DNA from: SAR202 cluster bacterium
GTDB lineage: Bacteria > Chloroflexota > Dehalococcoidia > Lucifugimonadales > UBA3495
Length of the DNA stretch: 64,000 bases
NCBI GenBank assembly: GCA_016872385.1
Contig: VGZV01000001.1
Span: 22,114 to 86,113 of the forward strand
Direction of reading: 5' to 3'
How positions within the stretch are numbered: position 1 is the first letter of the stretch; every line of letters begins with the position of its first letter. The translations under genes were made by a program, and so were the position numbers. Positions 26,395 to 60,224 of this stretch are shown piece by piece. The notes under the pieces are model-generated. The model made no database searches. It saw nothing but the letters and a program-made list of their open reading frames with translations, and had not been told where the DNA came from.

Positions 26395-26844
26395 ATGAGC
26401 AACCAAGAACAAGTGATAGAGTCCTTGCGGGCCAGGGGCTACCGCTTGACCCCCCAGCGGCTGCTGGTGCTGAGCATCATTGCCGAAGGCGGCGGGCACA
26501 TGGGAGTGGACGAAGTATTCCAGCGAGCCAAGGCGGCCTACCCGTACATGGACATCGCCACAGTGTACCGCAACCTGCACCTGCTGAAAGGGTTGGGGGT
26601 GGTCACCGAGGTGGCCATTGGCGACCGCCTGCACTACGAGCTTACTGATCCCAACGGCCACCACCATCACATGGTCTGCCGGGTATGCCGGGGCGCTTTC
26701 AACCTCAGCCCCCATTACCTGGAGGAGTTCCGGCAGGTGTTGACCCGGGACTTTGGCTTTGAACCGGACCTGGACCACTTTGCCGTGTCCGGCGTCTGCG
26801 CCTCTTGCCACGCTGCGGGCGGGGAAGCGCAAGGGGCTGGATGA
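26395..26844 (+). CDS. Fur family transcriptional regulator (Zur-like)
   Basis: LRARGYRLTPQRLLVLSIIAE...VYRNLHLLKGLGVV...HHHHMVCRVCRG...C..C. The stop overlaps the SBP start (ATGA). Confidence 0.85.
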   Translation: MSNQEQVIESLRARGYRLTPQRLLVLSIIAEGGGHMGVDEVFQRAKAAYPYMDIATVYRNLHLLKGLGVVTEVAIGDRLHYELTDPNGHHHHMVCRVCRGAFNLSPHYLEEFRQVLTRDFGFEPDLDHFAVSGVCASCHAAGGEAQGAG

Positions 26845-27860
26845 CCATGCGTTGCAGGCTGCTTGGCGTCCTGGTTATGCCTTTGCTCATGGTCGTAGTG
26901 GGTTGCGCCCAAAGGCCAGCCCCTGCGTCCCCGACAGCCCCTGGACTGGGGCTGCAAGTGGTGACCACCGTATCTCCCATCACCAGCATTGTGGAGAACA
27001 TTGGCGGTGTACGTATTCATCTGGAAGGCATTGTGCCGGAAGGGACCAACTCCCACACTTTTGAACCTGCGCCCTCGGTGGCAGGGGCGCTTGCCAAGGC
27101 GGACCTTATCATTGTGAATGGACTGTTTCTGGAGGAGCCGACGCTGGCGATGGCCCAGGCTAACAAGAAGCCTGGTGCGGTAATTCTGTCCCTGGGCGAC
27201 GGGACCATCTCTAAAGACCAGTGGGCCTTTGACTTCTCCTTTCCAGAATCAGAAGGGCACCCTAACCCCCACCTCTGGCCGGACCCGCTTCTAGGCTTGA
27301 AGTATGCAGAACTGGTGGAGGCGGAACTGTCCCGGCTGGACCCCGCCAACGCCAATTACTACCAGGAGAACCTGGGCAAGTTCCGGCAGCGCATTGAGGC
27401 CCTGGATGCAGGCATTCGCGCCGCCGTCCAGACTATTCCGCCCGGCCGCCGCAAACTGCTGACCTACCACGATTCTTGGGCCTATTTTGCCCGCCGGTAC
27501 GGCATGGAGGTCATTGGCGCGGCCCAGCCCTCGGACTTCTCGGAGCCTTCGGCCAAGGAGGTGGCCGGCTTGATTGACCAGATCCGCCAGCAGCAAGTCC
27601 CGGCGGTGTTCGGTTCAGAAGTGTTCCCCAGCACGGTGCTGGAGACTATCGCCAAGGAAGCTGGGGCAAGGTATGTTGATGAATTACGGGACGACGATCT
27701 GCCTGGCGCGCCTGGAGATACCCTCCATTCCTACCTGGGCCTGATGCTGCAAAATATGGAAATCATGATTCCCGCCTTGGGCGGCACGGTGGACTCCTTA
27801 TCTGGCTTTGATGCCAGCCCGGTATTCTCCGGCGCCAGTCCGGCAATCTACCTGCAGTAG
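26841..27860 (+). CDS. Metal ABC transporter substrate-binding lipoprotein (ZnuA/TroA cluster 9)
   Basis: Lipobox MVVVGC. VVTTVSPITSIVENIGG and HPNPHLWPDP motifs. Confidence 0.85.
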   Translation: MTMRCRLLGVLVMPLLMVVVGCAQRPAPASPTAPGLGLQVVTTVSPITSIVENIGGVRIHLEGIVPEGTNSHTFEPAPSVAGALAKADLIIVNGLFLEEPTLAMAQANKKPGAVILSLGDGTISKDQWAFDFSFPESEGHPNPHLWPDPLLGLKYAELVEAELSRLDPANANYYQENLGKFRQRIEALDAGIRAAVQTIPPGRRKLLTYHDSWAYFARRYGMEVIGAAQPSDFSEPSAKEVAGLIDQIRQQQVPAVFGSEVFPSTVLETIAKEAGARYVDELRDDDLPGAPGDTLHSYLGLMLQNMEIMIPALGGTVDSLSGFDASPVFSGASPAIYLQ

Positions 27861-27869
27861 CTGTAAGTC

Positions 27870-28748
27870 GTGCTTCATCCTACTCCGCATCACCGGGCGC
27901 CGGGCCAGCCAATCATTGAGCTGCGCGGAGTCACCAGCGGGTATGAAGGCCAGCAAGTGCTGCGCCAGGTTGACCTGCGGGTTATGCCCGGCGATTTTAT
28001 TGGCTTGCTGGGCCCCAGTGGTTCCGGCAAGACGACTTTGTTGCGCACTATGCTGGGCGCGGCCCACATTTTCCACGGCGAAGTCTTGGTCCACGGCGTT
28101 TCCATTGCCCGGCAGCGGCCCCAGGCGGGATACGTGCCCCAGTTGGAAACCATAGACTGGAACTTTCCGGTCACGGTAGCTGAGGCAGTGATGATGGGCC
28201 GCACCATGAACAACGTCCTCTTTCCCTGGCACCGGCGTCAGGACTGGAAGCTGGCCCGGGAGATGATGGACCGGCTGGGCATTTCCCACCTGGCCCGGCG
28301 GCACATTCGTGAGCTGTCCGGCGGGCAGCAGCAACGGGTGTTCCTGGCCCGCGCCCTGGTCAGCAGTCCCGATTTGCTGCTTTTGGACGAACCCACCAGC
28401 GGCGTGGACATCAAGACCCGCGATGATGTGATGCACCTGCTCCATGAACTGAACCACCAGGGCGTCACCATCATCCTTACCACCCATGAAATCAACGCCG
28501 TGGCCGTGCACCTGCCCTGGCTGGTCTGCCTTAACGGGTACGTTCTGGCCGAAGGCCCGCCGGCCAAGGTCATAACCTCGCAGGTCCTCAAGCAGACCTA
28601 TGGCGCCGAGATGCCGGTGATTAACTACCAGGGCATGATGCTGGTGGCGGAAAGCCCGCACCCGTTTAACCGCAACGGCGGCGACTCCAGCCGTAACGCC
28701 GGAGGGCAGGGCGCGGCCGAAGCAGGCGCTGCGGACAGCCATGCTTGA
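27870..28748 (+). CDS. Metal ABC transporter ATP-binding protein (ZnuC-type)
   Basis: Walker A GPSGSGKTT, signature LSGGQQQR, Walker B LLLLDEP. Confidence 0.9.
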   Translation: MLHPTPHHRAPGQPIIELRGVTSGYEGQQVLRQVDLRVMPGDFIGLLGPSGSGKTTLLRTMLGAAHIFHGEVLVHGVSIARQRPQAGYVPQLETIDWNFPVTVAEAVMMGRTMNNVLFPWHRRQDWKLAREMMDRLGISHLARRHIRELSGGQQQRVFLARALVSSPDLLLLDEPTSGVDIKTRDDVMHLLHELNHQGVTIILTTHEINAVAVHLPWLVCLNGYVLAEGPPAKVITSQVLKQTYGAEMPVINYQGMMLVAESPHPFNRNGGDSSRNAGGQGAAEAGAADSHA

Positions 28749-29616
28749 GCCTTTTCAATACCAGTTCTTTGTCCGTGGCCTGGCGGCGGCGACCCTGGTG
28801 GGCGGGCTGTGCGGCCTCATCGGCGTATACATCGTCCTGCGCCGCATGGCCTACATAGGGCATGGGCTGTCCCACTCGGTGTTTGGCGGCGCAGTGGTCA
28901 GCTACGTCATGTCCTTCAATTTTTTTGTGGGAGCCAGCCTGTGGGGCTTCCTCTCCGCCATTCTCATCACCCTCACCACCAGAAAACATAAGATTGGCTC
29001 CGATGCGGCCATTGGCATTATCACCACTGCCAGCTTTGCCTTGGGCATTGCCCTGATTAGCCGGTACAAGACCTTCACACGCAGCTTCGATGCAGCCTTG
29101 TTCGGCAACATCCTGGGAGTCACGCAGGGCGACTTGCTGGCCATTGTGGTGGTGGCGGCGGCCACCGCCATAATCCTGTTCTCTGGCTACAAACTCTTCT
29201 TGTTTGCCACCTTTGAACCGGAAGTCTCCCGCTTTTACGGCGTGCCCACGGGCTGGGTTGACACCCTGTTTTCCTTGGTGCTAGCCGCCACCATTGTGGT
29301 GTCCATGCAAATACTGGGCGTCACCCTCATCGCCGCCGCCATCGTCATACCGCCCATAGTTGCCCGGCTGCTCACCGACAGCTTCAAGACCATGATCCTG
29401 CTCTCCACTGCCGTGGGAGCTTTTTGCGGGCTGGCCGGGGTCTACATCAGCTACTATGTGGACGTGTCCTCCGGGGCCAGCGTGGTGCTGTTTTCCGCTC
29501 TGGTCTTTGTGGCGGTGCTGGCCTACTCCAACCTCAAGACCCGGCTAGCCCTAGCCGCTGGCGCAGGCGGCAGGGCGGGGCACCATCACGCCGGAGACAC
29601 CAGTCCCTTCCACTAG
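28741..29616 (+). CDS. Metal ABC transporter permease (ZnuB-type, ABC-3 family)
   Basis: 291 aa, polytopic. Overlaps the ATPase gene by 8 nt. Confidence 0.85.
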   Translation: MLEPFQYQFFVRGLAAATLVGGLCGLIGVYIVLRRMAYIGHGLSHSVFGGAVVSYVMSFNFFVGASLWGFLSAILITLTTRKHKIGSDAAIGIITTASFALGIALISRYKTFTRSFDAALFGNILGVTQGDLLAIVVVAAATAIILFSGYKLFLFATFEPEVSRFYGVPTGWVDTLFSLVLAATIVVSMQILGVTLIAAAIVIPPIVARLLTDSFKTMILLSTAVGAFCGLAGVYISYYVDVSSGASVVLFSALVFVAVLAYSNLKTRLALAAGAGGRAGHHHAGDTSPFH

Positions 29617-29785
29617 CCCCAAGGTGGGCTGATCCTTCTGGGACTTCCCTTTCTGAATTCAGGCCGGGATCCGGCTAGTTGTTCACCTGCCCCCGCGCCT
29701 GGGCGCCGGCTTTTGCCGGTGCGGCGTAAGCCTTCCTAATGCTCGCCACGGCAAGCTGGGCCATTGCCCTTTAGTGCCCATCCTA

Positions 29786-29872
29786 AAAACTCACCGCTGA
29801 GTACGCGGAGACCGCTGAGATAAAAGGAATCCAATACAAACTCTCTGCTTTCTTTGCGCTCTCTGCGGTTAT
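29786..29872. repeat. E-type repeat (AAAAACTCACCGCTGAGTACGCGGAGACCGCTGAG...CTCTCTGCGGTTAT)
   Basis: Reverse complement of the copy at 58529-58617. Related copy at 54376-54459. Confidence 0.8.
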
Positions 29873-29944
29873 TGGATAGGCGCTTATAGCTTTGCAGGAT
29901 GCTCCTGAGCACATACCCACCTTGCTGCCTTGGTTTACAAATAA

Positions 29945-30014
29945 GTAACAAGTTTTTAACAACGACGTTACACTCCAGAAATGTTCTGGAAATACCTGCG
30001 TTACATACTTTAAC
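29945..30014 (+). promoter_or_regulatory. Array of 11-nt phased pentamers (GTAAC-n6-TTAAC-n6-GTTAC-n6-GAAAT-n6-GAAAT-n6-GTTAC) with a central 17-bp palindrome; candidate nitrogen-regulator operator
   Basis: Pentamers start at 29945, 29956, 29967, 29978, 29989 and 30000. The palindrome TCCAGAA-ATG-TTCTGGA spans 29974-29990. The AT-rich segment lies 80-150 nt upstream of the PII-like gene. Confidence 0.4.
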
Positions 30015-30091
30015 TTGCCAACAAGTTCTGTTGGCGTCCACTTAACTTCATAATTTAGGATGATTACGTATTAGTAACCGGCGATAATGAG

Positions 30092-30409
30092 GTGGATGCA
30101 GTGAAGGAAGTCATTGCGATAGTCCGTCCGGAGCGGCGAGAGGCCACACTAAACGCCATGCGCAGCGTCGGCCTTGCAGAATTGCTCCATGTCCGTGTCA
30201 TGGGCCGCGGACGCCAACAGGGCCTTCAGTACCTGCGCCGCGCCCAGGGTGAGCAGGAGGCAGGCATGGCCTTCCTTTCCAAGCGCCTCATGTCCTGGAT
30301 GGTGCCCGATGACCAGGTGGAGCAAACAGTGCGTACCCTGCTGCGAATAAATCAGTCCGGCAACCACGGCGATGGCAAGATTTTTGTCTGCCCGGTGGAA
30401 GAAGCCTGA
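30092..30409 (+). CDS. P-II-like nitrogen regulatory protein with extended T-loop and no C-terminal tail
   Basis: KEVIAIVRPER...VMGRGRQQG...GDGKIFVCPVEEA. The start is GTG 30092 or GTG 30101 (a GAGGTGG SD favours 30101). Confidence 0.8.
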   Translation: MDAVKEVIAIVRPERREATLNAMRSVGLAELLHVRVMGRGRQQGLQYLRRAQGEQEAGMAFLSKRLMSWMVPDDQVEQTVRTLLRINQSGNHGDGKIFVCPVEEA

Positions 30410-30455
30410 AGGCAGCCCTGGCAAATTACTGCTGAAGGGACGGGAGTGATACGAC

Positions 30456-31106
30456 GTGGCCAAGCGCGAAGGCGTCAACTACCCCAAGTTTAAGGATCAG
30501 TTTGCGGTGATGGACTTTGAGGCGGAGCCGTTGCCCGTGCTGTCGCTGTTCCCAATGCCGCCGGCCAGCTATTTGGAAGACTGGCAGTTGACTTTCACCG
30601 ACGTCAACAGCCAGCGGCGCGTGGTCACCGGTGCCCAACTCTTGAGTCTGCCCCGGGTGCATGGGCGCGTCCCCCTGGTATGCCAGATTTTTAACTGGTC
30701 TGAGGAGCCGGAGGTGGAGGGGGTGCGCCTGGTGGATGTGCTGGATGCCATCGGTGTAGACGCCCCGGATAGCGGCTATTTTGCCTTTCACTCCGCTGAC
30801 GGCCTCTATTTTGAAGGGCTTCCCCGCACTATGGCCCGCGACCCCCGGGTGCTGCTGGTCTTTGGGCTGGCGGGCCGCCCGCTGCCCCGGGAGTACGGCG
30901 GCCCGGTGCGCTCGCTGGTGCCCTTCCTGCAAGGCTACAAGAGTGTCAAGTGGGTGCATCTGGTGCGGGCTTACCGCAAGGACCCGGTGGGCATCAAACG
31001 GCTGCTGGGCCAGAGCCGCACCGCAGTGCTGGGTTCAGTGGGCCAGGAATTGGCTGGCGTGGTAGTGGGCCGCATGGGCGACGGCGACAGCACCCTGGAG
31101 GTATGA
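30456..31106 (+). CDS. Small cytoplasmic molybdopterin-binding oxidoreductase, sulfite-oxidase/YedY fold
   Basis: 216 aa with no signal peptide. WQLTFTDVNSQRRVVTGAQLLSLPRVHGRVPLVCQIFNWSEEPEVEGVRLVDVL and GRPLPREYGGPVRSLVPFLQGYKSVKWV match the Oxidored_molyb pattern, including the Cys ligand context. Confidence 0.7.
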   Translation: MAKREGVNYPKFKDQFAVMDFEAEPLPVLSLFPMPPASYLEDWQLTFTDVNSQRRVVTGAQLLSLPRVHGRVPLVCQIFNWSEEPEVEGVRLVDVLDAIGVDAPDSGYFAFHSADGLYFEGLPRTMARDPRVLLVFGLAGRPLPREYGGPVRSLVPFLQGYKSVKWVHLVRAYRKDPVGIKRLLGQSRTAVLGSVGQELAGVVVGRMGDGDSTLEV

Positions 31107-32353
31107 ACGTGGGGCACCGTCCAACGCTTATAGCCTCTTTCCTGCATTTTGACGTCAGTTTCATGCTCTGGGTGCTGCTGGGCGCACTGGGCGTGTATAT
31201 TGCCGAGAGCTTGGGACTTACGTCGGCGCAGAAGGGCCTCATGGTGGCGGTGCCCATCCTCAGCGGGGCGCTGCTGCGAATACCTCTGGGATTGCTTAGT
31301 GACCGCTTTGGTGGAAGGCGCATTGGCGCCGGATTGCTGGTCTTCCTGTTTTTGCCTTTGACCCTGGGCTGGCGGATGGGCGACAGTCTTCCGGCGCTGC
31401 TGGGCATTGGCCTTATGCTGGGGGCGGCAGGCGCGTCCTTTGCCGTGGCATTGCCCCTGGCCAGCCGGTGGTATCCCAAGGAGCGGCAGGGCCTGGTCAT
31501 GGGAATAGCCGCCGCGGGCAACAGCGGCACGGTCATCGCTAACTTGCTGGCGCCGCGGCTGGCTGCTTTAGTTGGATGGCACAACGTGCTGGCGCTGGCC
31601 ATGCTGCCCCTGGCGGTGGTCTTGCTGGCCTTCGTGCTTATGGCCAAGGAACAACAGCAAGTTGCATCCCAAAGGTGCCCTGCCCTTGCTGCTGGCGGCC
31701 CAAAGTTCTTGGCCCTGAAACAAGCGGACCTCTGGTGGTTCTGCCTGTTCTACAGCGTCACCTTCGGAGGCTACGTAGGGCTGAGCAGTTTCCTGCCCAT
31801 TTTCCTTAGAGACCAGTACCACGTTGCGCCAGTGACCGCTGGTTACCTGACTGCCGCTGCTGCGGTAGTAGGCAGCGGCCTGCGCCCGGCGGGCGGCTAT
31901 CTGTCCGACAAATTTGGCGGCGTGGCCATGCTCACCGCCCTGCTGCTGGGCATCAGCCTGGTGTATGTGCTAGCCAGCCGCCTGCCCGCCCTGGGCATCA
32001 TGATGGTTCTGATCATCGCCGGGATGGCCTGCCTGGGCATGGGCAACGGCGCAGTTTTCCAGTTGGTGCCTCAGCGGTTCTCTGGGGAAATTGGCCTGGC
32101 CACTGGAATTATCGGGGCCTTTGGCGGCTTGGGCGGTTTCTTCCTTCCCAATTTGCTGGGGAATGCCAGGGAAGTTAGCGGCTCCTTTGGGCCGGGTTTG
32201 CTGGTGCTGGCGGGGGCTGCCTTGACCGCACTGGTGGCGTTGCGAGTCCTGGTGCTGGTGGAAAACGGCTGGCGCCGGGCCTGGGCGCAGCCTACCCCGG
32301 CGCCTGAAGCAGTGCCGGGGAGAGTCATTATGGTCCCTTACCTGCAACCCTAG
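31103..32353 (+). CDS. narK: Nitrate/nitrite MFS porter (NNP family, NarK/NasA-type)
   Basis: 12-TM profile. NNP signatures IAAAGNSGT and GIIGAFGGLGGFFLP. ATG 31103 overlaps the upstream stop (ATGA). Confidence 0.85.
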   Translation: MNVGHRPTLIASFLHFDVSFMLWVLLGALGVYIAESLGLTSAQKGLMVAVPILSGALLRIPLGLLSDRFGGRRIGAGLLVFLFLPLTLGWRMGDSLPALLGIGLMLGAAGASFAVALPLASRWYPKERQGLVMGIAAAGNSGTVIANLLAPRLAALVGWHNVLALAMLPLAVVLLAFVLMAKEQQQVASQRCPALAAGGPKFLALKQADLWWFCLFYSVTFGGYVGLSSFLPIFLRDQYHVAPVTAGYLTAAAAVVGSGLRPAGGYLSDKFGGVAMLTALLLGISLVYVLASRLPALGIMMVLIIAGMACLGMGNGAVFQLVPQRFSGEIGLATGIIGAFGGLGGFFLPNLLGNAREVSGSFGPGLLVLAGAALTALVALRVLVLVENGWRRAWAQPTPAPEAVPGRVIMVPYLQP

Positions 32354-32388
32354 TTGAGCACTCTGGGAGGGCGGAAAGGAGGCGCACT

Positions 32389-33945
32389 ATGAAACCCGGC
32401 AACAACCCCATGGAAAAAATCAAGGCTGAGAAAGATGGCCTGGACATTCTCCAGGAGATTGACGAACTGGCCGCCAAACACGGCGGCTGGGAGACCCTGG
32501 ATCCCGGCGACCGGGAGCGCCTCAAATGGATTGGCACTTTCTTCCGCAAACCCACCCCTGGGCTGTTCATGATGCGGATACGCATCACCAACGGCCAGGC
32601 TACCAGCGCCCAGTTGCGCGCTTTGGCGGACATTGCCCAGCGGTTGGGCAACGGGGTGCTGGACTTGACTACCCGCCAGCAGGCGCAGCTCCGCGCGGTC
32701 AAAATCCAGGATGTGCCTCAAATCATTCAGGCGCTGCAAGGGGTGGATCTGACCTCCTTGCAGACCGGCCTGGATAACATCCGCAACATTAGCTGCTGTC
32801 CGCTTTCCGGCCTCACTGCCAACGAGTTGCTGGACGCTTCGCCCGTGGGCGTTGAATACACGCGGATGTTTCTGAACAACAAGGAGTTCTCCAACCTGCC
32901 CCGCAAGTTCAACGTGACCATTACCGGGTGCCTGGAAAACTGCACCCATGCCGAGACCCAGGACCTGGGTATGACGCCGGCCGTGCGCACCTCCGACGGC
33001 CAGCCCGGTTTCAACGTGGTGGCGGGGGGCAAAATGGGTTCCGGCGGTATGACCGTAGCCCAACCCCTGGACATTTTTGTCACGCCCCAAAACGCGGCAC
33101 GGCTGGCGGCCCAGGTCACTCTGCTGTTCCGGGACGAAGGCGTGCGGGAGCAACGAAACAAGGTGCGGCTGGCCTTTCTCATCCAGGCCTGGGGTGTGGA
33201 CAAGTTCCGGGCAGCCCTGGAGGACCGCTGGGGGCTTCCCCTGGAGCGGGCCGGCCGGGATGTGCGCCATGCTGTTCACACGGACCACCTGGGCGTGCAG
33301 CGGCAGAAGCAGCCTGGCATGTATTCCGTGGGCCTGTGTGTGCCCACGGGCCGCATAACCAGCGAACGGATGCAGGAGTTGGCTCTTCTGGCCGATAGAT
33401 ACGGCAGCGGCCACGTACGTTTGACCAACGCCCAGAACGCTATTCTGGTCAACGTGCCCCAGCATCGCCTGACCGCCCTGCTGTCCGAGCCGCTGCTGCG
33501 CGAGTTGTCGCCGGTGCCTTCCGCCTTCCATCGTGGGCTGGTTACCTGCACCGGCGTGGATTACTGCAACCTGGCCTTGATTGAGACTAAGGGCACTGGC
33601 CTGGCCTTGTCCAACGCCCTGGCCCGGCGGTTTCCCGGTGCATCCAACCTTACCATGCACTGGTCGGGGTGTCCTGCCGGATGCGGCAACCATCAAGCGG
33701 CGGATGTGGGGTTCCAGGGGGCCAAGGCGCGGGTCAACGGCCAGGTGGTGGATGCAGTAAGCATATTTGTGGGCGGCCGCACCGGCACCGAGCCCAAGCC
33801 TGGCGAAAAAATCATGGAACTGATACCCGTAGATATGCTGGAAGAGGTTGTGCCCGTCGTTCTGCGGCACCTGGAGGTGCTGAAAAAGGTTACCCGGGAT
33901 TCCGAGGCTGAGTCCCGTGTTTTGATGGTCCCGGTGCTGGTTTAA
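32389..33945 (+). CDS. nirA: Ferredoxin-dependent nitrite/sulfite reductase (siroheme, 4Fe-4S)
   Basis: 518 aa. Cluster-binding Cys motifs TCTGVDYC and SGCPAGCGNH, in a two-half NIR_SIR architecture. Confidence 0.85.
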   Translation: MKPGNNPMEKIKAEKDGLDILQEIDELAAKHGGWETLDPGDRERLKWIGTFFRKPTPGLFMMRIRITNGQATSAQLRALADIAQRLGNGVLDLTTRQQAQLRAVKIQDVPQIIQALQGVDLTSLQTGLDNIRNISCCPLSGLTANELLDASPVGVEYTRMFLNNKEFSNLPRKFNVTITGCLENCTHAETQDLGMTPAVRTSDGQPGFNVVAGGKMGSGGMTVAQPLDIFVTPQNAARLAAQVTLLFRDEGVREQRNKVRLAFLIQAWGVDKFRAALEDRWGLPLERAGRDVRHAVHTDHLGVQRQKQPGMYSVGLCVPTGRITSERMQELALLADRYGSGHVRLTNAQNAILVNVPQHRLTALLSEPLLRELSPVPSAFHRGLVTCTGVDYCNLALIETKGTGLALSNALARRFPGASNLTMHWSGCPAGCGNHQAADVGFQGAKARVNGQVVDAVSIFVGGRTGTEPKPGEKIMELIPVDMLEEVVPVVLRHLEVLKKVTRDSEAESRVLMVPVLV

Positions 33946-34015
33946 CACCAGCAACAGCGATCGCATGACCGTTCCGCCTGGGTATTTGAATAGCTTGTGT
34001 ATAAGGAGGCCAGCC

Positions 34016-34333
34016 ATGAAGATGATACGTGCGGTGGTCCGCCCGGAAAAAGAGGAAGCCGTAGGTGCAGCCCTGGCCAAGGCTGGGTTCCCGGCGCTTA
34101 CCAAATGGGATGTGGTGGGGCGGGGCAAGCAACAGGGCATTCAAGTGGGCAGCCACATTTATGATGAGCTGGCCAAGTCCCTGGTGCTAATAGTGGTCAA
34201 TGATGACCAGGTGGAAAAGGCAGCCAAGGTGATTCATGATGCAGCCTTCTCCAGATATCCGGGCGACGGCAAAATCTTCGTCACGCCGGTGGATACCGCT
34301 TATACCATCCGCACTGGCAAGTCAGAGCTTTAG
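34016..34333 (+). CDS. P-II-like nitrogen regulatory protein (short non-canonical T-loop)
   Basis: MKMIRAVVRPEKEE...VVGRGKQQGIQVGSHIYDE...GDGKIFVTPVDTAYTIRTG. An AAGGAGG SD precedes ATG 34016. Confidence 0.85.
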   Translation: MKMIRAVVRPEKEEAVGAALAKAGFPALTKWDVVGRGKQQGIQVGSHIYDELAKSLVLIVVNDDQVEKAAKVIHDAAFSRYPGDGKIFVTPVDTAYTIRTGKSEL

Positions 34334-34337
34334 AGTG

Positions 34338-34482
34338 CCTAACAAAATGAAGGATGTCATTCTGAGGAGTCCCGATGCTATCGGGACTGCAAAGAAGCTG
34401 GGGTGGGGCAAGCGCCCACCACCCCAGACCCTTCGTCCTTCAGCCGAAGGACTCAGGGTGACAACTTCGGCATTTTGTTAGG
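34338..34482. mobile_element. B-type MITE, intact 145-bp copy
   Basis: TIR CCTAACAAAATG / CATTTTGTTAGG. Near-identical to 7369-7511 and serves as the empty-site reference for the nested insertion there. Confidence 0.85.
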
Positions 34483-34607
34483 GGTTTTTATTCACCTTCC
34501 CGGGCGGCGGGTGCGCCACTGGGAAGGGCCGCTACTGGCCCAGCAACATTCCAAGAAAGAGAGCGCCCCTGTGTGCCAGGAGGCGCTCCTTGACGTATAG
34601 TCACCGG

Positions 34608-36825
34608 CTATTGCACCAGCAGGCCGGCGCATTCTCCAGGCGCGCCAACGAACCCCAGGGCGGTAGCCGCTGCGTTGGGGATGTACTGCACCTTGAAGGA
34701 GTAGGTCCCCACCGCCAGCGGGCCATAGTTGCTGGACTGGGCGGTTGTGACACCGCTGCCGCCGCTAAGGGCCACTGTTTGCATGGAGGCAGGCCGGACA
34801 TTGCAGCTTGAGGTGCCTGTGAAGTATGCAATACTCACGCTGCCCGTTGGCGTCGCCGATGGGTCGCTACTGGTGATTGTGGCCTTGACATAGACGGAGG
34901 ACCCGGAGGCCACTACCTTCACGTTGCAGTTGTTGAAATTGCACAAAGCCGTGGCCGGAGGAACTGCCAGGACCTCCGTGCCCACAGTGGCCACTGGCGG
35001 CGGCACAATGGTGAAGGAATAAACAAACGGGGCCATGACGTTGCCCGCCAGGCCCCCGGCTTCCACGGTCACATCCACTACCTGGGAATTGGCAAAGTTA
35101 ACGGCTGGGTCGTAGGTCAGCGTGTAATCCGCCGCCGAGCCGGTGATGGCTGGTGACACCACGGTTCCTTCCACCGTCATCTTCAGGCTGGAGAGGTTGA
35201 CCCCTGCGGCCAAGTCTTTCACGTGCACCACAATGTTGGTGTAAACGGGTACGTTGGTGGCTCCCGGCAGCGGGTCGTGGCCCGAGGTGAAGGGCGGGGT
35301 TACGTCCAGCACCGTGACCACTGCGGTGTCGCATCCTGCGCCGCCGTTGTTGTCGGTTACGCAAACGGCGGCGTTAAACGCGCCTATGGAGTTGTAAGTA
35401 TGGCTCAAGGCAAAGGTCTTGCTGGCCGTCAGGGTCAACGGCTGAATGCCTGAGCCGTCGCCGTAGTCCACGGTGGCTGTCCAGGTATCACTGCCGGCGT
35501 CAGTAAAGGAGCCGGAACTGGAAAAAGCGGCACCCTGGTTGATGGTGGCATCGGGGCCTGCGTTCACCACCGGCGCCACGTTGGCAACCACTACTGAGGC
35601 AGTGTCTGTCCCGCTTTTGCCCAGGGTGTTGGTGACTTTCAGCCCTATGCTGAAAGTCCCGTTGTCGGAAAATACCACTGCTACCGTAATTCCGGTGGCA
35701 TCATCGTATAGATTGTCGTTGTCCAGGTCCCACAGGTAGGTTAAAGCGCTGCCGCCGGGTTCGCTCGATCCTGTGCCAGTGACGGTCACGGCGCTGCCTT
35801 CAGCTCCAGCATAAGGTCCGACAGCCTCTGCAGTGGGTGGCGGCAGGGGAGTTGGCGTCGGCGCCGGAGTAGGCGTCGGCCCCCCCTGCGACTCCGCCGC
35901 AGTTGGTGGCGCCGCTGTCGGTGAAGGTCTTGCCCGCCACCGGAATAAATTGCCAGTCGTAGCTGGTGGGGTGCAGCGTAAGTTTGAGCACGCCGTGAGT
36001 ATTGGCGTTACGGACCTCGCTATTGGGCAAAACAGTGCCAATGCGCGACAGTCCAGCTCCGCCGGTGCCTACGGTAATCTGCCGGAAGCCGTTTACGGGG
36101 TCGGCTTGGCCTGCCGGGTTCTGCAGGCCAAATCGCTCGTAGATGTGTTCATGGGCATTGAGCACCACGTCCACACCGTTGTCGTAAAGAATCTGGAGCA
36201 TCGGAATGATGTTGGGATTGACGCCGCCATGGGTGGTGCCGGAGCTGAAGGCCGGGACGTGCCAATAGGCCAGCAAGCACTGAGACCTGCTGCGGCCCGC
36301 CAGGTCGCTGAGCAGCCAGCTGGTTTGAGCAGAACTGGGGCTGCTGAGGGAGACCACGTGCCATGCGCCCAGGTCGTAACTGTAGTAACCCAGCCCGTTT
36401 GGACCTGCGTTGGCCCCGAAATAGGTATAGTAGGGCACGCCGCCGGTGCCTTGCATATCGTGGTTGCCCGGGGCAGGCTGGGTGCGGGCCTTGTGGCGTC
36501 CCCACACCGGGTCATAACAGTTGTTAAAGTTGTCGGTAGTGCCGCTGGGGTACACATGGTCCCCCAAGGTAAGCACAGTGCCCGGAATACTGTCCACCAG
36601 TGTGGCGGTGGCTGAGTCGGTGGTGAAGTTACAGCCCGCAATGTCACCGGCTGCCACCACCACTGGGTCGGTCACTTGGCCGGGCGCCTGACTGGCGGCG
36701 AAATTGTCAAACACCTTGAGGGAATTGTAGGCAGTCGGGAGTTGGTACAGCACGCCAAACAAACTGGCCAGCAGCACCAGCGCTGCAACAGGCCACCAAC
36801 GCCGCAATCGCATAAACAGCATCAC
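34608..36825 (-). CDS. Secreted metallophosphoesterase fused through a Pro/Thr linker to PKD and Ig-like domains; interrupted by a 1-nt indel in a G7 run
   Basis: Track ORFs 35800-36825 (GDHVYP...GNHD...NAHEHIYER calcineurin-like motifs, N-terminal TM/signal) and 34608-36041 (PTPTPAPTPTP linker, PKD-like YLWDLDNDNLYDD..) overlap out of frame. They join at the C7/G7 run 35880-35886. Confidence 0.8.
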
Positions 36826-52829: not shown

Positions 52830-53741
52830 TTAGCCCCTTCTGGAAGGCGGAATGTCTACTCCCAGCAGGGCGCGCCGCGCCACCGCCCAGGCGCCGCGCA
52901 ATACTCCTTGCGCCGATGCCGTGTCCGGAGCCAGCGTCTTTACCGCCATGCCCTGCCCGCCGGGCAGAAGACTGGCCCCGGCCGCAGCGTTGGGGCATCC
53001 GCCAACTGCGGCGCGGACCTGATGCAGCAGAAGCTCCGCATCCCCCGCCTGCGACACGACAATGAGGGTCCCCACGGCGTATCCGTGGCCCTGGGTTTGA
53101 ATACCCAGCACGCCCCTGCCCAGGGGAGAGCGGGCTGCTGGCGAAAGGTCATAGCTTTCCCAGTACAGGATATGCCCTGCCGAGTCCTGCACCTCCAGCC
53201 GGTTTTGCAGCCGGGAATAGGCCAGGTTTTCCCCGCGGGCGGTCCGCCCCTGGGCCAGCGCCTCGCCGTAGATCAACGTGGCGCCTGGGGCTACTCTTAT
53301 GTGTGTCTGCTGGCTTAGGCGGGCGCTCTGGAAGGGTATGAGCGGCTCTGGCATGTACTCTAGACAACTGTCCTGGCCAAGGGTTAGACAGGTGTCCAGG
53401 CGTGCGCTTCCTTCCGGCATGGAATAGACTTTGGTGGCCGCCTGGGTAGTCAGGTGCGCCCTGGCCCCAGGGCCAACCTCTGCCTGCACTGTTAAGTGGT
53501 CGCCTGCCAGCAGCCCGGCCGTAGGGTTGCACAAGTAAATAAAAGCCATGTCCGGCAGGTTGTGGTCCAGGTACAGCGCCCGCTGTACCTGCAGAGGTGG
53601 GACGGTGCGCTTCCCCACCAGGCGGGTGCGGCCTTCCCGCACCGCCAGGGCCAGGTCCGCCAGTCCCTCCTGCGCCCTGGTTACGTAGGGGCAGACCTGG
53701 GTGTCTGCCCTGGGAGTCGGTTCAGCAGCGGGCCGCAACAA
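52830..53741 (-). CDS. ureD: Urease accessory protein UreD/UreH
   Basis: [23 protein letters not shown]...[14 protein letters not shown]...YMPEPLIPF. The start is uncertain. The nearest upstream canonical start in frame is TTG 53741 (the track ORF extends to 53828 and overlaps ureG). Confidence 0.8.
53685..53712. repeat. G-type GC-rich hairpin between ureG and conserved ureD sequence
   Basis: GTAGGGGCAGACC-TGGGT-GTCTGCCCTG. Related to 26262-26287. Confidence 0.6.
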
Positions 53742-54351
53742 CCCCGACTCCCCTGAGAATATGCGCCACCACTTCCTCCAGGCCCTGGCCGGTGCGGCAG
53801 TTGGTGAACAAGAAAGGCTTGCCGGCACGGACGCGGGCGGCGTCCCGCTCCATCACCGCCAGGTCAGCGCCCACGTGGGGGGCCAGATCAATTTTGTTAA
53901 TCACCAGCAGGTCGGTCTGGGTGATGCCCTGGCCGCGCTTGCGGGGGATCTTGTCGCCCGCAGCCACGTCAATGACATAAAGCTGGTAGTCGGCTAGTGC
54001 TGGACTAAAGGTCAGGGTCAGGTTGTCGCCGCCGCTTTCGATGAGCATCAGGTCCGAATCCGGATATGCCGCCGCCAGCTCCTCCGCCGCCAGCAGGTTC
54101 ATGCTGGGGTCTTCCCGCACCGCGGTGTGGGGACATGCGCCGGTCTCCACGCCGCGGATGCGGCCCAGGTCCAGCACCCCCGCCAGGGTGCGCCGCACGT
54201 GGTCGGCGTCCTCGCGGGTGAAGATGTCGTTGGTGATGACCAGGGGTTTCAGCCCGCGGGCCAGCAGGCGGGGCGCCAGGGCCTCCAGCAACGTGGTCTT
54301 GCCGGAACCCACCGGGCCGCCAATACCGACGCGGGGAATTTGTGGGGGCAT
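53722..54351 (-). CDS. ureG: Urease accessory GTPase UreG
   Basis: [16 protein letters not shown]-loop, ESGGDNL and NKIDL motifs. Confidence 0.95.
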
Positions 54352-54375
54352 GGCTTTTCTCCTTGGGGGGAAGGA

Positions 54376-54459
54376 TTAACCGCAGGGAGCGCGGGGAGAG
54401 CAGAGGATTTTTGGTTACTCTTAAAAACTCAGCGTTCTCTGCGGTCTCCGCGGTGAATT
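54376..54459. repeat. E-type repeat in the ureF-ureG spacer
   Basis: TAACCGCAGGGAGCGCGGGGAGAGCAGAGG...CTCAGCGTTCTCTGCGGTCTCCGCGGTGAATT. Confidence 0.75.
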
Positions 54460-54460
54460 G

Positions 54461-55309
54461 TTAGCTGGCAAATATCCGCAAGTCGCTGCTCTCATGGTTC
54501 ATGGCCGCAATGTCCAGCTCCGGAGTGAAGGAGGTCATCTCCCGCCAGTCTCGCTGGGCAATTTCCTGGGCCAGCTCCAGGGCCAGGGATTGCAGGCGGC
54601 GCAGAATTTCCTGGGCCTGGCGGTGGGTCATGGGCAGCAGGCGCAGCCCGGCGCTGAGCACGCCCACGCAATAGCTGTGGCAAAAAGCCAACAGCGCCCA
54701 CTGCTCCGGTATTTCCAGGCAATGAGACACTACCCCCAGGGCCACTGCGCCGGCGCCTGGCGATTCCCTGCGTTCCACCGCGGCCAGGAAGCTGCGGTGC
54801 ATGGGGTGGCTGGTAAAGGCGGCGGTCTCCTGGAGCAGCCTGCGGCCGTGCTGGCAAGAGGCGGCCCGCAGCTCCGAGGGCAATTTCAAGGCGTGCAGGC
54901 GCTGGTCAATGGCGACTACCGTTGCCAGGTCGTTATGGACGGCGGCGCGATAGGCATGGAGCAGGGCCACGCCGTCGGCGGGCAGCACCGACCAGGCAAG
55001 CTGGTGGGCCAGTAATTCCTCCACGTCGGCGGCGGCGCGCACCCAGTCCTGGCGCACCATGCCCTCCATCCCCTGGGAGTGGGCGTACATCCCCGTGGGG
55101 AAGAAGGAGTCGGATAGCTGGAGGGCGGTGAGGAAGGCCCGGCTGTGGTGGCGGAAATCCCCCCCACCCCCCTTTGCAAAGGGGGGCTTAGTTAACCCCC
55201 CTTCAGTAAGAAGGCGACTGGCTAACCATCCTTCATCAATGGAAGACCCCTCTAACCCCCCTTTTCTAAAGGGGGGTACGGGGGGATTTAGGGCCTCGCC
55301 GCTTCTCAT
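54461..55309 (-). CDS. ureF: Urease accessory protein UreF with a ~55-aa N-terminal extension encoded by two D-type repeats
   Basis: The conserved UreF body starts at FLTALQLSDSFFPTGMYAHSQGME. The only canonical in-frame start upstream of it is ATG 55309, 6 nt after the ureC stop, so the repeat copies at 55153-55293 are read as PPFRKGG...PPFAKGGGG. Confidence 0.8.
   Translation of the reverse strand: MRSGEALNPPVPPFRKGGLEGSSIDEGWLASRLLTEGGLTKPPFAKGGGGDFRHHSRAFLTALQLSDSFFPTGMYAHSQGMEGMVRQDWVRAAADVEELLAHQLAWSVLPADGVALLHAYRAAVHNDLATVVAIDQRLHALKLPSELRAASCQHGRRLLQETAAFTSHPMHRSFLAAVERRESPGAGAVALGVVSHCLEIPEQWALLAFCHSYCVGVLSAGLRLLPMTHRQAQEILRRLQSLALELAQEIAQRDWREMTSFTPELDIAAMNHESSDLRIFAS
55153..55293. 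repeat. Two D-type repeats (CCCCCC-TTT-nn-AAA-GGGGGG palindromes flanked by GGGGGGATTT) inside the ureF 5' region
   Basis: Copies at 55153-55200 and 55251-55293. Related copies at 57056-57093 and 57280-57320. Confidence 0.8.
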
Positions 55310-55314
55310 CGCAT

Positions 55315-57033
55315 CTACACCAGGAAGAATAACTGGGCCAGGCTCAGGCGCTCCGCCGGGGGCACGGTAGCCAACTCGCCGTCTACCCGCACCTGGTAGG
55401 TGTCCGGGTTTACCTCGATGTGGGGCGTGCGGTCGTTGCGCACCATCTGGCGCTTGGTGATGGTGCGGCAGCCCAGCACCGGCGCCACCATCCGCCGCAG
55501 CCCCAGCTGCTGGTGCACCCCCAGCTCGTAGGCGCGGCGGGAGACGAAGGTGACGCAGGTGCGGGCCAGGGCTGACCCCAGCGCCCCGTACATGGGCCGG
55601 TAAAACTGCGGCTCGGCGGTGGGGATGGAGCCGTTGGGGTCGCCCATCAGCGCCCAGGCCACCATGCCACCTTTGATAATCATCTTGGGCTTGGCCCCAA
55701 AAGTGCCCACCGGCCACAGCACAATATCCGCCAGCTTGCCCGGCGTCAAAGACCCCACCAGGTGGCTGATGCCGTGGGTGATGGCTGGATTGATGGTCAA
55801 CTTGGCCAGGTAGCGCAGCACCCGGAAGTTGTCATGCTCCGCAGCGTCCTCCGGCAGCTTCCCTTTCATCTGCTTCATCTTGTCGGCAGTCTGGAACAGG
55901 CGGGTAAAGTTCTCGCCCACCCGGCCCATGGCTTGGGAGTCGGAGGAGTACATACTTATGACGCCCAGGTCGTGGAGCACATCTTCCGCGGCCATGGTCT
56001 CCGGGCGGATACGGCTCTCGGCGAAGGCCACGTCCTCGGCCACGCCGGGGTTCAGGTGGTGGCACACCATCAGCATGTCCATGTGCTCGGCCAGGGTGTT
56101 GACCGTGTAGGGCCTTGTAGGGTTGGTGGAGGAGGGCAGCACGTTCAGGTGGGCAGAGATGCGGATGATGTCCGGGGCATGGCCGCCGCCCGCACCCTCG
56201 GTGTGGTAGGTGTGGATGGTGCGGCCCGCGATGGCGGCGATGGTGTCCTCCACGAACCCAGCCTCGTTCAGGGTGTCGGTATGGATGGCCACCTGCACGT
56301 CGTGGGCGTCAGCCGCCCGCAGGCAGGCGTCAATGGCGGCGGGGGTGGTGCCCCAGTCCTCATGGAGCTTCAACCCGCAGGCCCCGGCCTCGATCTGCTC
56401 CTCCAGCGGGGAAAGTTCGCTGGCGTTGCCTTTGCCCAGCAGGCCCCAGTTGATGGGCAGCGCCTCCGCCGCCTCCAGCATCCGGTGGATGTGCCACGGG
56501 CCGGGGGTGCAGGTGGTGGCGCGGGTGCCGTCGGCGGGGCCGGTGCCGCCGCCAATGTGGGTGGTGATGCCGTTGGACAGGGCGTGGTACACCTGCTGGG
56601 GCGCAATCATGTGGATGTGGGTGTCTATGCCGCCAGGAGTGGCGATAAGGTGTTCCCCGGCGATGACTTCCGTGCCCGCGCCCACCACCAGGCTGGGGTC
56701 CACTCCGTCCATGACGCCGGGGTTGCCCGCCTTGCCGATGCCAACGATGCGGCCATCCTTGACCCCCAGGTCGGCCTTGATGATGCCCAGCAGGGGGTCC
56801 ATGACGATGACATTGGTAATCACCAGGTCCAGAGCGCCGTTGCGGTTGGTGGCGTTGGGGGACTGGCCCATGCCATCCCTGGCGGTCTTGCCGCCGCCAA
56901 AGACCAGCTCGTCGCCGGGGGTAATCAGGTCCCGCTCCACCTGGCAGATGAGGGATGTATCGGCCAGCCGGAACCGGTCCCCGGCGGTGGGGCCATAAAG
57001 CTCAGCGTAGTGGCGGCGGCTAATGCGGGCCAT
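55315..57033 (-). CDS. ureC: Urease alpha subunit
   Basis: 572 aa. [41 protein letters not shown] and other urease active-site motifs. Confidence 0.97.
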
Positions 57034-57055
57034 GCTAATTAGCTCCCTTGAGGCG

Positions 57056-57320
57056 AAAATTTCCCCAACGACCTCTTGTGAAAGGGGGGAACGCTGTAAG
57101 CTCCCTTTTGATAATGGGGTACTGGTACACTTTGCGGGCGCAGCAGAAAATGAGTTTATTCGTCACACCGGCGGAAGCCGGTGTCCAGAAATGCACGAGG
57201 CAGTTGCACGCTTCTGAATTCCGGTGCAAGCCGGAATGACGAGGCCCGAAAGGACCCAGTACCGCAAATGGGGAAGGACTTAAGCCCCCCTTTCGTAAAT
57301 GGGGGTTGGGGGGATTTCCC
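57056..57320. repeat. Composite of D-type, A-type (57119-57262) and D-type repeats filling the ureB-ureC spacer
   Basis: The 309-bp spacer between ureB (stop 57343) and ureC (start 57033) consists almost entirely of recognisable repeat copies. Confidence 0.8.
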
Positions 57321-57342
57321 GCGCCGCTAAGCAACCCGCCTT

Positions 57343-57735
57343 TCATTGCAGAGCGCCTCCGCCAAACCCCCGCTGCTCCGCCGCCGCCTGCGCCCTTGCC
57401 CGCGCCTCTGGCCCGTCCAGGCCGCCGTTGGTCAGGCCGTTCAGGCCCTGCACCCGCCGTGTGCCGCCGATGGCTACCAGGGTCACATCCTTGCGGTCCC
57501 CCGGCTCGAAGCGCACTGCCGTGCCCGCAGGGATATCCAGCCGCATCCCAAAGGCGGCGGCGCGGTCAAAACGCAGCGCCCGGTTGACCTCAAAGAAGTG
57601 GAAGTGGGAACCCACCTGCACTGCCCGGTCGCCGGTGTTCCACACGCTGAGGCTCACCGTGGGCCGGCCTGAGTTAAGCTCTATCGTGCCCTGGTCGGGA
57701 AGGTAGTTGGCGGTTTCACCGGACATAAGCATCAC
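57343..57735 (-). CDS. ureB: Urease beta subunit
   Basis: [39 protein letters not shown] 57726 is the likelier start (an AGGTGA SD lies 6 nt upstream). Confidence 0.93.
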
Positions 57736-57785
57736 CTAACAGTGAGAGTCGTCCTTACGAGCGACATCCCGAATTTGCATCGAAA

Positions 57786-57873
57786 GCACCGGCTTAAGGT
57801 AGTTAGCGCATCGTTCTGGCGAAAGCCGGAACCCAGAGCGGCAACTGGATTCCAGCTTTCGCTGGAATGACGG
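57786..57873. repeat. A-type repeat in the ureA-ureB spacer
   Basis: GCACCGGCTTAAGG...CTGGCGAAAGCCGGAACCCAG...CTGGATTCCAGCTTTCGCTGGAATGACGG. Confidence 0.75.
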
Positions 57874-57953
57874 GGCCATACTAGGGTGGCTCCTCTGCCT
57901 AAAAATCTGGCTGAAAATTCGGAATGATTTATGGACAAAGGTGGTGGCAGTCC

Positions 57954-58256
57954 CTACACAATCGGGTCGTGGCAGGAGACCAGCTTGGTGCCGTCGGGAA
58001 AAGTGGCCTCCACCTGTACCAGGGGCACCAGGTCCGGCACCCCTTCCATGACCTCTTCCCGCGTCAACACCTGGCGGCCCAGCTCCATCACCTGGGCCAC
58101 GGTCTTGCCGTCCCGCGCGCCCTCCAGCATGGCCTCAGTAATCAAGGCCACCGATTCCGGCACGTTGAGCTTGAGGCCTCGCGCTTTGCGCCTGCGAGCC
58201 ACCTCCGCCGCCACGTACACCAGCAGCTTTTCCGATTCCCGGGGAGTCAGCATCAT
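57954..58256 (-). CDS. ureA: Urease gamma subunit
   Basis: [31 protein letters not shown]...100 aa. Confidence 0.95.
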
Positions 58257-60215: not shown

Positions 60216-60224
60216 TCAGATACC

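Follow-up and report, generated by a model that had tools for sequence, protein, structure and literature searches.

A small sulfite-oxidase-fold protein as a candidate assimilatory nitrate reductase, encoded with a NifI-like PII pair in a SAR202 cluster bacterium

We analysed a stretch of 64,000 nucleotides (the window) from a SAR202 cluster bacterium of the Dehalococcoidia (assembly GCA_016872385.1, contig VGZV01000001.1, positions 22,114 to 86,113). The list of open reading frames (ORFs) and domain profile searches placed a nitrate/nitrite assimilation operon at 30101-34333, consisting of five co-directional, tightly packed genes. The first and the last encode PII-type proteins, here named PII_A and PII_B. 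Between them lie the genes for a cytoplasmic protein of the sulfite oxidase (SUOX) fold, here named the Mo protein, for a nitrate/nitrite porter, and for a siroheme nitrite reductase. The features of the locus were as follows.

29945..29992, + strand: upstream block, candidate operator/promoter element (inverted repeats; sequence conservation with the related locus L001)
30101..30409, + strand: PII_A, NifI2-like, 102 amino acids (PF00543, E 1e-14); the ORF opens at GTG 30092
30456..31106, + strand: the Mo protein, cytoplasmic, single-domain, SUOX fold, 216 amino acids, candidate catalytic protein of a nitrate reductase (PF00174, 78 bits)
31103..32353, + strand: nitrate/nitrite porter of the major facilitator superfamily (MFS), NarK/NNP, 416 amino acids (TIGR00886, 262 bits)
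32389..33945, + strand: NirA, ferredoxin-type siroheme/[4Fe-4S] nitrite reductase, 518 amino acids (NF007125, 517 bits)
34016..34333, + strand: PII_B, NifI1-like, 105 amino acids (PF00543, E 3e-25); the ORF opens at ATG 33965

The five packed genes had been proposed in the original prediction, which was made from the DNA letters before any database search, and the domain searches agreed with it on all of them. Its gene extents needed revision at the two PII starts. The start of PII_A was best placed at GTG 30101 (MKEVIAI...) instead of 30092, in agreement with orthologues and the public gene call, and that of PII_B at ATG 34016 (105 amino acids, MKMIRAV...), as in orthologues and public gene calls. 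The predicted overlap of the Mo gene stop with the ATG of the porter gene (ATGA at 31103-31106) was checked in the sequence and was present, and through it the porter is predicted to be translationally coupled to the Mo gene.

The porter and the nitrite reductase had been read as NNP-type and ferredoxin-type respectively, and NarK and NF007125 each proved to be the best family. The porter scored 262 bits for TIGR00886 (cut-off, 311.7), a lead of more than 170 bits over any other family. We tested eight cluster transporters, the window's and seven others, from seven loci in all; each was of the NarK family, with 260-314 bits, and the one at the equivalent position of locus L018 reached 314 bits for TIGR00886. 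NirA scored 517 bits for NF007125 (cut-off, 594) with a complete domain architecture, NIR_SIR and NIR_SIR_ferr occurring twice each, and its thaumarchaeal counterpart scored 596 bits. The ferredoxin-type NirA was the nitrite reductase of the Dehalococcoidia and Thaumarchaeota. Outside these two lineages, the position was taken by an NAD(P)H-type NirB, or by a reductase of ~1,100 amino acids fused to a NirA-like module.

The sole domain detected in the Mo protein was PF00174 (Oxidored_molyb), with 78 bits versus a cut-off of 24, which agrees with the earlier statement that the protein has no haem or FAD domain. It had no signal peptide, and its N-terminus (MAKREGVNYPKF) carried no Tat motif. 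The best NCBIfam match was MsrP (NF003767), at 33.8 bits versus a cut-off of 207, and the window cluster contained no YedZ-like gene. An AlphaFold2 model of the protein had a predicted local distance difference test score (pLDDT) of 76.7 and a predicted template modelling score (pTM) of 0.75, with a core above 90 and both termini poorly predicted. When compared by Foldseek, the model matched chicken and plant sulfite oxidase (SO), YedY, SoxC, SorA/SorT, and the lower-ranked Pichia nitrate reductase (NR) with a probability of 1.0; the E values were 9e-10 for chicken SO, 3.6e-9 for YedY and 7e-7 for Pichia NR. Non-catalytic pterin-binding PruR proteins were matched as well (1.6e-6 to 5e-5). The model places the Mo protein in the fold of the SUOX molybdenum cofactor (Moco) domain, as expected from the earlier reading of it as a signal-less protein of the SUOX/YedY fold.

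A profile alignment with plant SO (1ogp) brought Cys76 of the Mo protein (PLVCQIFNWS) into register with the Mo-ligand cysteine (CAGNRR), and W81 with the pocket tryptophan. Cys76, the putative Mo ligand, was invariant across 17 diverse family members (alignment A1). Also invariant in this alignment were, at the positions given, the Moco motif GGPxRxxxPxLQxYxSVKW (GGPVRSLVPFLQGYKSVKW in the window), a family-specific N-terminal motif, R-x4-Y-P-x-F-x2-Q-F (NYPKFKDQF in the window), and a C-terminal family motif, DPxGxKRxxGxS (DPVGIKRLLGQS in the window). The protein is predicted to bind Mo-molybdopterin (Mo-MPT); an indirect sign of this is the clustering of Moco biosynthesis genes with the Mo gene in locus L050.

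The original prediction had proposed a clade assignment by hidden Markov model (HMM). A full HMM scan of 1.84 billion representative sequences returned a tight clade around the Mo protein, with 23 representatives at E<=1e-30, after which the scores fell to generic SUOX proteins, many of them with signal peptides. A special affinity to eukaryotic NR was rejected, since NR ranked below SO, YedY, SoxC and SorA/T in both sequence profile and fold. Judged by its profile matches, the Mo protein represents a distinct cytoplasmic single-domain SUOX clade that is no close relative of eukaryotic NR.

In a scan covering 185,579 species genomes we found 80 related loci, 50 of which belonged to Dehalococcoidia/SAR202 and 25 to Nitrospirota (Manganitrophaceae, Troglogloeales, Nitrospira and others); Thaumarchaeota and Acidobacteria contributed 2 each and Lindowbacteria 1. 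The six-frame ORFs of the loci were searched with the five proteins of the window, and components were counted in the 66 loci with sufficient flank. A siroheme nitrite reductase was present in 63/66 loci, NarK in 57/66, a PII_A-type domain in 61/66 and a PII_B-type protein in 61/66. All four components accompanied the Mo gene in 53/66 loci, and the arrangement is therefore far beyond chance; the co-occurrence of the five genes, which had been put forward as a check on the prediction, is in this respect in its favour. Linkage of the Mo gene to NarK and siroheme nitrite reductase was nearly always seen, in at least five phyla, and the module as such recurred in at least six. Two Dehalococcoidia loci held the trio PII_A-Mo-PII_B without an adjacent NarK or nitrite reductase gene (L010, 7285-9079; L013, 7624-9076), which suggests that PII_A, the Mo protein and PII_B form the functional core. 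The module was found in the Manganitrophaceae (L060, L064, L066 and L080), and the Manganitrophaceae clusters L064, L072 and L080 retained PII genes without NarK.

Clustering of all ORFs of the 80 loci, together with Pfam searches, revealed no further consistently linked gene, with ferredoxin, siroheme and Moco genes among those sought. In Dehalococcoidia loci, no neighbours recurred other than an OmpR-type regulator and generic families of SAR202 paralogues. In 17 of these loci (e.g. L042, 4902-5711), the regulator, a protein with an OmpR/PhoB-type Trans_reg_C DNA-binding domain, was encoded upstream of the module at a distance of a few kb; it is a possible transcriptional regulator, and none was seen adjoining the window cluster. 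In several long-read metagenome-assembled genomes (MAGs), the Mo, NarK or NirA gene was split into two or three neighbouring ORFs (L007, L009, L044, L047, L077 and L080), most likely by homopolymer sequencing errors rather than as pseudogenes.

A canonical nitrate reductase, with a molybdenum bis-pyranopterin guanine dinucleotide (Mo-bisPGD) centre, was searched for in the window and in the related loci. The Mo protein itself lacked the Molybdop_Fe4S4, Molybdopterin and Molydop_binding domains. Among the window ORFs scanned, comprising all five of at least 550 amino acids and most of at least 250, there was no Mo-bisPGD protein, and no such gene was called in the ~10 kb past either end of the window. 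The earlier claim that the cluster and the window hold no enzyme of the dimethyl sulfoxide (DMSO) reductase family thus stands for the ORFs scanned and for these flanks. No Mo-bisPGD reductase was found within ±8 kb of the Mo gene in the 80 related loci. Of the 83 unassigned ORFs of at least 550 amino acids in these loci, none had a plausible N-terminal Fe-S motif of the family; a single match to a regular expression for the motif, in L019, was dismissed, as it fell in an Arg/Cys-rich ORF resembling an off-frame artefact.

Gene fusions were observed on both the regulatory and the redox side of the Mo protein. In Nitrospirota and Acidobacteria, Pfam searches showed Mo proteins of 365-400 amino acids with a PII domain fused at the C-terminus. 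The fused domain was of the PII_A type, NifI2-like, and the next gene encoded a PII_B-type protein. This Mo::PII_A fusion was present in two phyla, with 19 fused domains among the 80 loci. A sister clade of ~335 amino acids had an N-terminal NirD/NasG-like Rieske domain, with the full set of cluster ligands (CPHxGG...CPxHGW), fused to a related Cys-containing Mo domain. These Rieske::Mo loci followed the order PII-NarK-PII-NirB-Rieske::Mo (Sumerlaeota-type clusters), with the fusion directly after NirB. No Mo-bisPGD gene was found within ±10 kb in those seen in full, L083 and L084; the downstream sequence of L085 extended to only ~5.6 kb.

In Thaumarchaeota, the Rieske domain was found on the nitrite reductase. 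The thaumarchaeal NirA carried a C-terminal NirD-like Rieske domain, and its gene was directly upstream of the Mo gene. Locus L050 (5961-15733) had the order NirA::Rieske - Mo - NarK, and MoaA came directly after NarK; MoaE, MoaB/Mog and MoaC lay close by, PII genes were absent, and L057 matched the locus in ORF layout (the comparison being of layout only). Moco biosynthesis genes were clustered with the Mo gene only in Thaumarchaeota among the 80 loci surveyed. Both loci came from groundwater Thaumarchaeota/Nitrosopumilales MAGs, in which a nitrate or nitrite assimilation cluster would be unusual.

The two PII proteins were compared with NifI and GlnK proteins. PII_B was 56% identical to Methanoperedens NifI1 over all 105 amino acids (112 bits) versus 36% to GlnK (69 bits), and PII_A was 40% identical to Methanoperedens NifI2 (80 bits) versus 34% to GlnK (63 bits), NifI2 being its best match among NifI1, NifI2, GlnK and GlnB. 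Relatives of PII_A carry the JGI label 'PII 2', and the next relatives beyond its own family, at 40-45% identity, were the NifI2 proteins of nifH-nifI1-nifI2-nifD-nifK clusters of Ca. Methanoperedens. By these identities the pair is homologous to the NifI1/NifI2 couple, where the original prediction had noted a resemblance. Neither the cluster nor the other window ORFs scanned contained nif genes. Compared to E. coli GlnB, the T-loop was longer by 3 residues in PII_A and by 13 in Methanoperedens NifI2, and shorter by 4 in both PII_B and NifI1; that of PII_A was hence 10 residues shorter than the loop of true NifI2. Non-canonical T-loops had been predicted for both proteins. This was correct for the short loop of PII_B, but the long insert described in PII_A was overstated, its loop being longer by only 3 residues. 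The missing C-terminal tail of the first PII protein was real, in that PII_A of Dehalococcoidia had no C-terminal RxR tail. Both proteins kept the nucleotide/2-oxoglutarate motifs of PII proteins (GRGxQxG, K58 and GDGKIF).

Further PII genes were observed in other lineages. A third, NifI1-like gene followed the NirB-type reductase in Nitrospirota/Acidobacteria (L052, 14805-15158; L064, 12636-12977; L076, 9006-9443), which gives three PII domains per cluster. In the Rieske::Mo clusters, the first PII-like gene encoded a highly divergent protein of 166 amino acids (L083, 5383-5883; L085, 5386-5886), with the B-loop GDGKIF replaced and the C-terminus extended by a long stretch; nucleotide binding may be lost in this protein.

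We consider it somewhat probable that the Mo protein is an assimilatory nitrate reductase with a Mo-MPT centre, which receives electrons from ferredoxin or a Rieske carrier and has the NifI-like PII couple as its switch. The operon would then be a self-contained module for nitrate-to-ammonium assimilation. Nitrate would enter through the NarK porter and be reduced to nitrite by the 216-amino-acid SUOX-fold protein at a Mo-MPT centre ligated by Cys76, and NirA would reduce the nitrite to ammonium. Lacking a redox domain, the Mo protein would have to take electrons at its Mo centre straight from a small carrier. The ferredoxin that serves NirA is probably also this carrier in the Dehalococcoidia version; in other lineages the role probably falls to a Rieske domain of the NirD/NasG type, fused either to the Mo domain or to NirA. 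Electrons would there come from NirB through the Rieske domain, a route that parallels NasB-NasG-NasC of Paracoccus. The NifI1/NifI2 couple inhibits nitrogenase, and by analogy PII_A and PII_B probably form a hetero-oligomer that would bind the Mo enzyme and shut it off when nitrogen suffices; 2-oxoglutarate and ATP would relieve the block. The Mo::PII_A fusion speaks for such binding. Of this picture, the gene content, fold, cysteine conservation, synteny, fusions and NifI homology are results of the analysis, while Moco binding, nitrate as the substrate, the electron donor, and the PII-enzyme complex with its effectors are inferred.

The original prediction had named the Mo protein the best candidate for the nitrate-to-nitrite step, or else for a nitrate/nitrite-linked redox function. 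Comparison across genomes appears to support this, through the linkage to NarK and nitrite reductase, the lack of a Mo-bisPGD reductase in the 80 loci, the Rieske fusion, the clustering with Moco genes, and the decay of a related domain in Sandaracinus that is described below. Physiology agrees as well: the Manganitrophaceae carry the module, and Ca. Manganitrophus dominates enrichments in which 1 mM nitrate served as nitrogen source (PMC9040806), which is consistent with the Mo protein being a nitrate reductase.

Several points weigh against this assignment. The anion-pocket arginines of SO and eukaryotic NR were not kept in the alignment with 1ogp, the 'RNH' arginine being absent and the 'CAGNRR' segment deleted; this sets the anion pocket apart from the SO/NR type, and a nitrate pocket would need a different construction. 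Foldseek showed no preference of the fold for Pichia NR over SO or YedY. The low-confidence termini of the AlphaFold2 model are the parts that carry the family-specific conserved motifs. Direct electron transfer from ferredoxin to Mo-MPT is, to our knowledge, unprecedented. Many carriers, such as the Nitrospirota, might assimilate only nitrite through NarK, and the target of the PII pair might be the NarK porter instead of the Mo enzyme. Finally, Sandaracinus indicates that a relative of the Mo domain can coexist with NasC.

The locus of Sandaracinus amylolyticus had the order NirB - Rieske::SUOX - NasC (NF047855, 792 bits) - NasB-like reductase, and it was the only locus found with NasC adjoining the SUOX domain. 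In both Sandaracinus sequences the SUOX domain was degenerate. The Mo-ligand cysteine was replaced by threonine (YVTTMMFGF), the motifs at both termini were gone, and the Moco motif had lost its KW. Such decay beside NasC is expected if both proteins do the same job and one became redundant, and the fusion looks like a molecular fossil of a SUOX-type module in a cultured organism. Sandaracinus was also considered as a refutation of nitrate reductase function, and was rejected as such, its SUOX domain lacking the cysteine ligand and the family motifs. The gene in question is annotated 'NirD' in S. amylolyticus CP011125 (L081, 10001-10852), where the Rieske::degenerate-SUOX fusion lies between nirB and nasC.

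A different function for the Mo protein, which we regard as unlikely, is that of an accessory redox enzyme of nitrite assimilation, with nitrate reduction, if any, performed by an enzyme encoded elsewhere. Its substrates might be hydroxylamine, N-hydroxylated or N-oxide by-products (compare mARC and YcbX), or side products of NO or nitrite. SUOX/MOSC-type Mo-MPT enzymes are versatile, reducing sulfoxides, N-oxides and N-hydroxy compounds, and this versatility speaks for such a role, as do the pocket without SO/NR-type arginines and the fact that many carriers are nitrite-exposed Nitrospirota. The sharing of an operon with NasC in Sandaracinus can be read in the same direction, but that copy, being without the Mo-ligand cysteine, offers no evidence for an active accessory enzyme. 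Nor would a detoxifier be expected to outdo a nitrate reductase in universality in these clusters, and the coupling to NarK, the fusion to a NasG-like carrier and the dedicated NifI-type switch would all be unexpected for one. A Mo-bisPGD reductase was found in none of the ~85 loci.

It is improbable, in our judgement, that the Mo protein is a nitrate reductase while the PII pair gates NarK or the nitrite reductase, with the Mo::PII fusion reflecting only co-expression. PII genes do flank the MFS gene in Sumerlaeota-type clusters (PII-MFS-PII-NirB-NirD::Mo), and Nitrospirota have the third NifI1-like PII gene after NirB. Against this stand the recurrence of the covalent Mo::PII_A fusion in two phyla, the trio PII_A-Mo-PII_B standing alone in L010 and L013, and the PII genes retained without NarK in the three Manganitrophaceae clusters. 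We give equally little credence to a non-catalytic, PruR-like ligand-binding sensor that controls NarK and/or the nitrite reductase together with both PII proteins. In its favour, the pterin-binding PruR regulators have the same fold, a signalling PII domain occurs as a fusion partner of the Mo domain, and PII genes often adjoin the transporters they regulate (e.g. glnK-amtB, seen in L087). On the other side, the Mo-ligand cysteine and the Moco-phosphate motif GGPxRxxxPxxxGxKSVKW are strictly conserved, Moco biosynthesis genes accompany the Mo gene in L050 where no PII is present, the Rieske electron-carrier fusion argues for redox chemistry, and the cysteine was lost exactly where NasC occurs. 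Taken as a group, these alternatives are less consistent than the nitrate reductase assignment with the Rieske fusion, the clustering of Moco genes, the loss of the cysteine beside NasC, and the stand-alone trios.

We further compared the module with known systems. It resembles eukaryotic NR (e.g. Pichia angusta, 2BIH/2BII) in the SUOX cofactor-binding fold, in the Cys-ligated Mo-MPT centre that is predicted for the Mo protein, in the proposed reaction, and in its place in the pathway, upstream of a siroheme nitrite reductase and beside an NNP/NRT2-type porter. Unlike the eukaryotic enzyme, the Mo protein lacks domains for Mo-co dimerisation, cytochrome b5 and FAD/NAD(P)H as well as an NR/SO arginine pocket, and its proposed control is by PII proteins instead of phosphorylation and 14-3-3 binding. 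Its structural affinity to NR does not exceed that to SO or YedY, which suggests that the fold was recruited independently.

With NasA, NasC and NarB, the Mo protein shares the operon slot next to a nitrite reductase and a NarK/Nrt transporter, and the apparent electron input of the module is like that of NarB (ferredoxin) or NasC (NirB plus the Rieske protein NasG). Those enzymes, however, are of ~700 amino acids with a molybdenum centre of two molybdopterin guanine dinucleotides (Mo-bisMGD) and a [4Fe-4S] cluster, whereas the Mo protein has an unrelated fold and cofactor in ~216 amino acids. As in the NasB-NasG-NasC system of Paracoccus, a NirD/NasG-type Rieske domain lies beside or within the presumed nitrate-reducing subunit, after NirB, which suggests that both reductions, of nitrate and of nitrite, draw on a common NAD(P)H input. 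The difference is that the terminal nitrate-reducing module has the SUOX fold, and that the version in the window has a ferredoxin-type NirA and no Rieske domain.

As with NifI1/NifI2, two PII paralogues are co-encoded with the Mo enzyme that they presumably control. PII_B shares with NifI1 its length of 105 amino acids and the same short T-loop, and PII_A shares with NifI2 the motif ...NQSGxxGDGKIFVCPVE(D/E)A. Whereas NifI genes lie between nifH and nifD and their target is nitrogenase, the partner here is a SUOX-fold protein; in contrast to NifI2, PII_A has the shorter T-loop, lacks the RxR tail in Dehalococcoidia, and is fused to its presumed target in some phyla. YedY/MsrP is similar to the Mo protein in having a single Moco domain without a dimerisation domain and in its Cys context (C-x-x-x-x-W), and the same single-domain organisation is shared by a SUOX-family group that PMC7759655, in the passage citing Kappler 2008 and Workun 2008, terms 'uncharacterised single-subunit cytoplasmic'. 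The Mo protein differs from YedY/MsrP in being cytoplasmic, without a Tat signal or a YedZ partner, in its low MsrP score (33.8 bits versus 207), in its own N-terminal motif and its own C-terminal motif, DPxGIKRLLGQS, and in its nitrogen-assimilation context.

All characterised prokaryotic nitrate reductases known to us (Nas/NarB, Nar and Nap) belong to the DMSO reductase family. The open-access full-text literature that was searched, including that on Nitrolancea, Sulfobacillus, Nitrospina, Nitrospirales, aquifer Nitrospirota, Methanococcales and Acididesulfobacillus, contained no description of a prokaryotic SUOX-type assimilatory nitrate reductase or of a PII/Mo cluster, an absence that is no proof. 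Prokaryotic assimilatory nitrate reductases were still described in 2026 as enzymes of the DMSO reductase family (PMC13381448). SUOX-fold nitrate reduction is known from eukaryotes and NifI-type PII control from nitrogenase, but neither is known in the form or the combination of this module.

The region around the operon was also inspected. The upstream block at 29945..29992 is AT-rich and contains the inverted repeat GTAAC-N17-GTTAC and the palindrome CCAGAA-ATG-TTCTGG. The nearest genome-resolved relative of the locus was that of a Dehalococcoidia MAG (L001), whose Mo protein was 89% identical; there the block was kept, while the flanking intergenic DNA diverged. No sigma-70 consensus was found at the block, the promoter/terminator scan scored no better than shuffles, and an Rfam scan of 29000-35000 gave no match. 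From its repeats and conservation, the block may be a candidate site for some nitrogen regulator.

Other genes of the window fit a SAR202-like member of the Dehalococcoidia (family III CoA-transferases, a luciferase-like monooxygenase, MmgE/PrpD, and amidohydrolase-2 paralogues). On the minus strand at 52830-64000, and in L094, there were further nitrogen genes: those of a urease operon (ureABC, ureF, ureG, ureD) and of a urea/branched-chain-type transporter of the ATP-binding cassette (ABC) class, with a glutamine synthetase at 58651-59985 in the same neighbourhood. Several nitrogen-acquisition routes appear to be grouped within ~35 kb in the source organism. Immediately upstream of the nitrate cluster was a ZnuA/ZnuC/ZnuB-type metal ABC transporter (26805-29616), which is probably unrelated to it. 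Downstream, on the minus strand at 34608-36825, were a PKD/Big_5-domain protein of 477 amino acids and a calcineurin-like metallophosphatase of 341; the two ORFs overlap by ~240 bp (35800-36041), so that one of the start codons is probably wrong.

Beyond the window, we hold it to be an evenly balanced proposition that the family constitutes a new class of prokaryotic nitrate reductase, a single-domain Mo-MPT SUOX enzyme of ~215 amino acids that arose independently of the eukaryotic one, is fed directly by ferredoxin or by a NasG-type Rieske carrier, and is controlled post-translationally by a NifI-type couple recruited from nitrogenase control. This would explain nitrate use in the carriers (SAR202/Dehalococcoidia, Manganitrophaceae and other Nitrospirota, Sumerlaeota, and some Acidobacteria and Thaumarchaeota), in whose genomes a nitrate reductase seems to be missing. 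The hypothesis is directly testable, in that the protein is small and soluble and that Ca. Manganitrophus enrichments already grow on nitrate. The Mo::PII_A fusion would offer a natural regulator-target fusion for structural work, and a NifI-type couple acting on a Mo enzyme other than nitrogenase would widen the known targets of this regulator family. If true, the finding would add a new enzyme class for a central reaction of the nitrogen cycle and an independent parallel to eukaryotic nitrate reductase, one that needs only Mo-MPT and not the bis-MGD branch of cofactor synthesis. The scoring of nitrate assimilation in metagenomes would also change, as current nasA/narB marker sets would miss the carriers, among them groundwater Nitrospirota, some Thaumarchaeota, and SAR202, a group that abounds in the nitrate-rich deep ocean.

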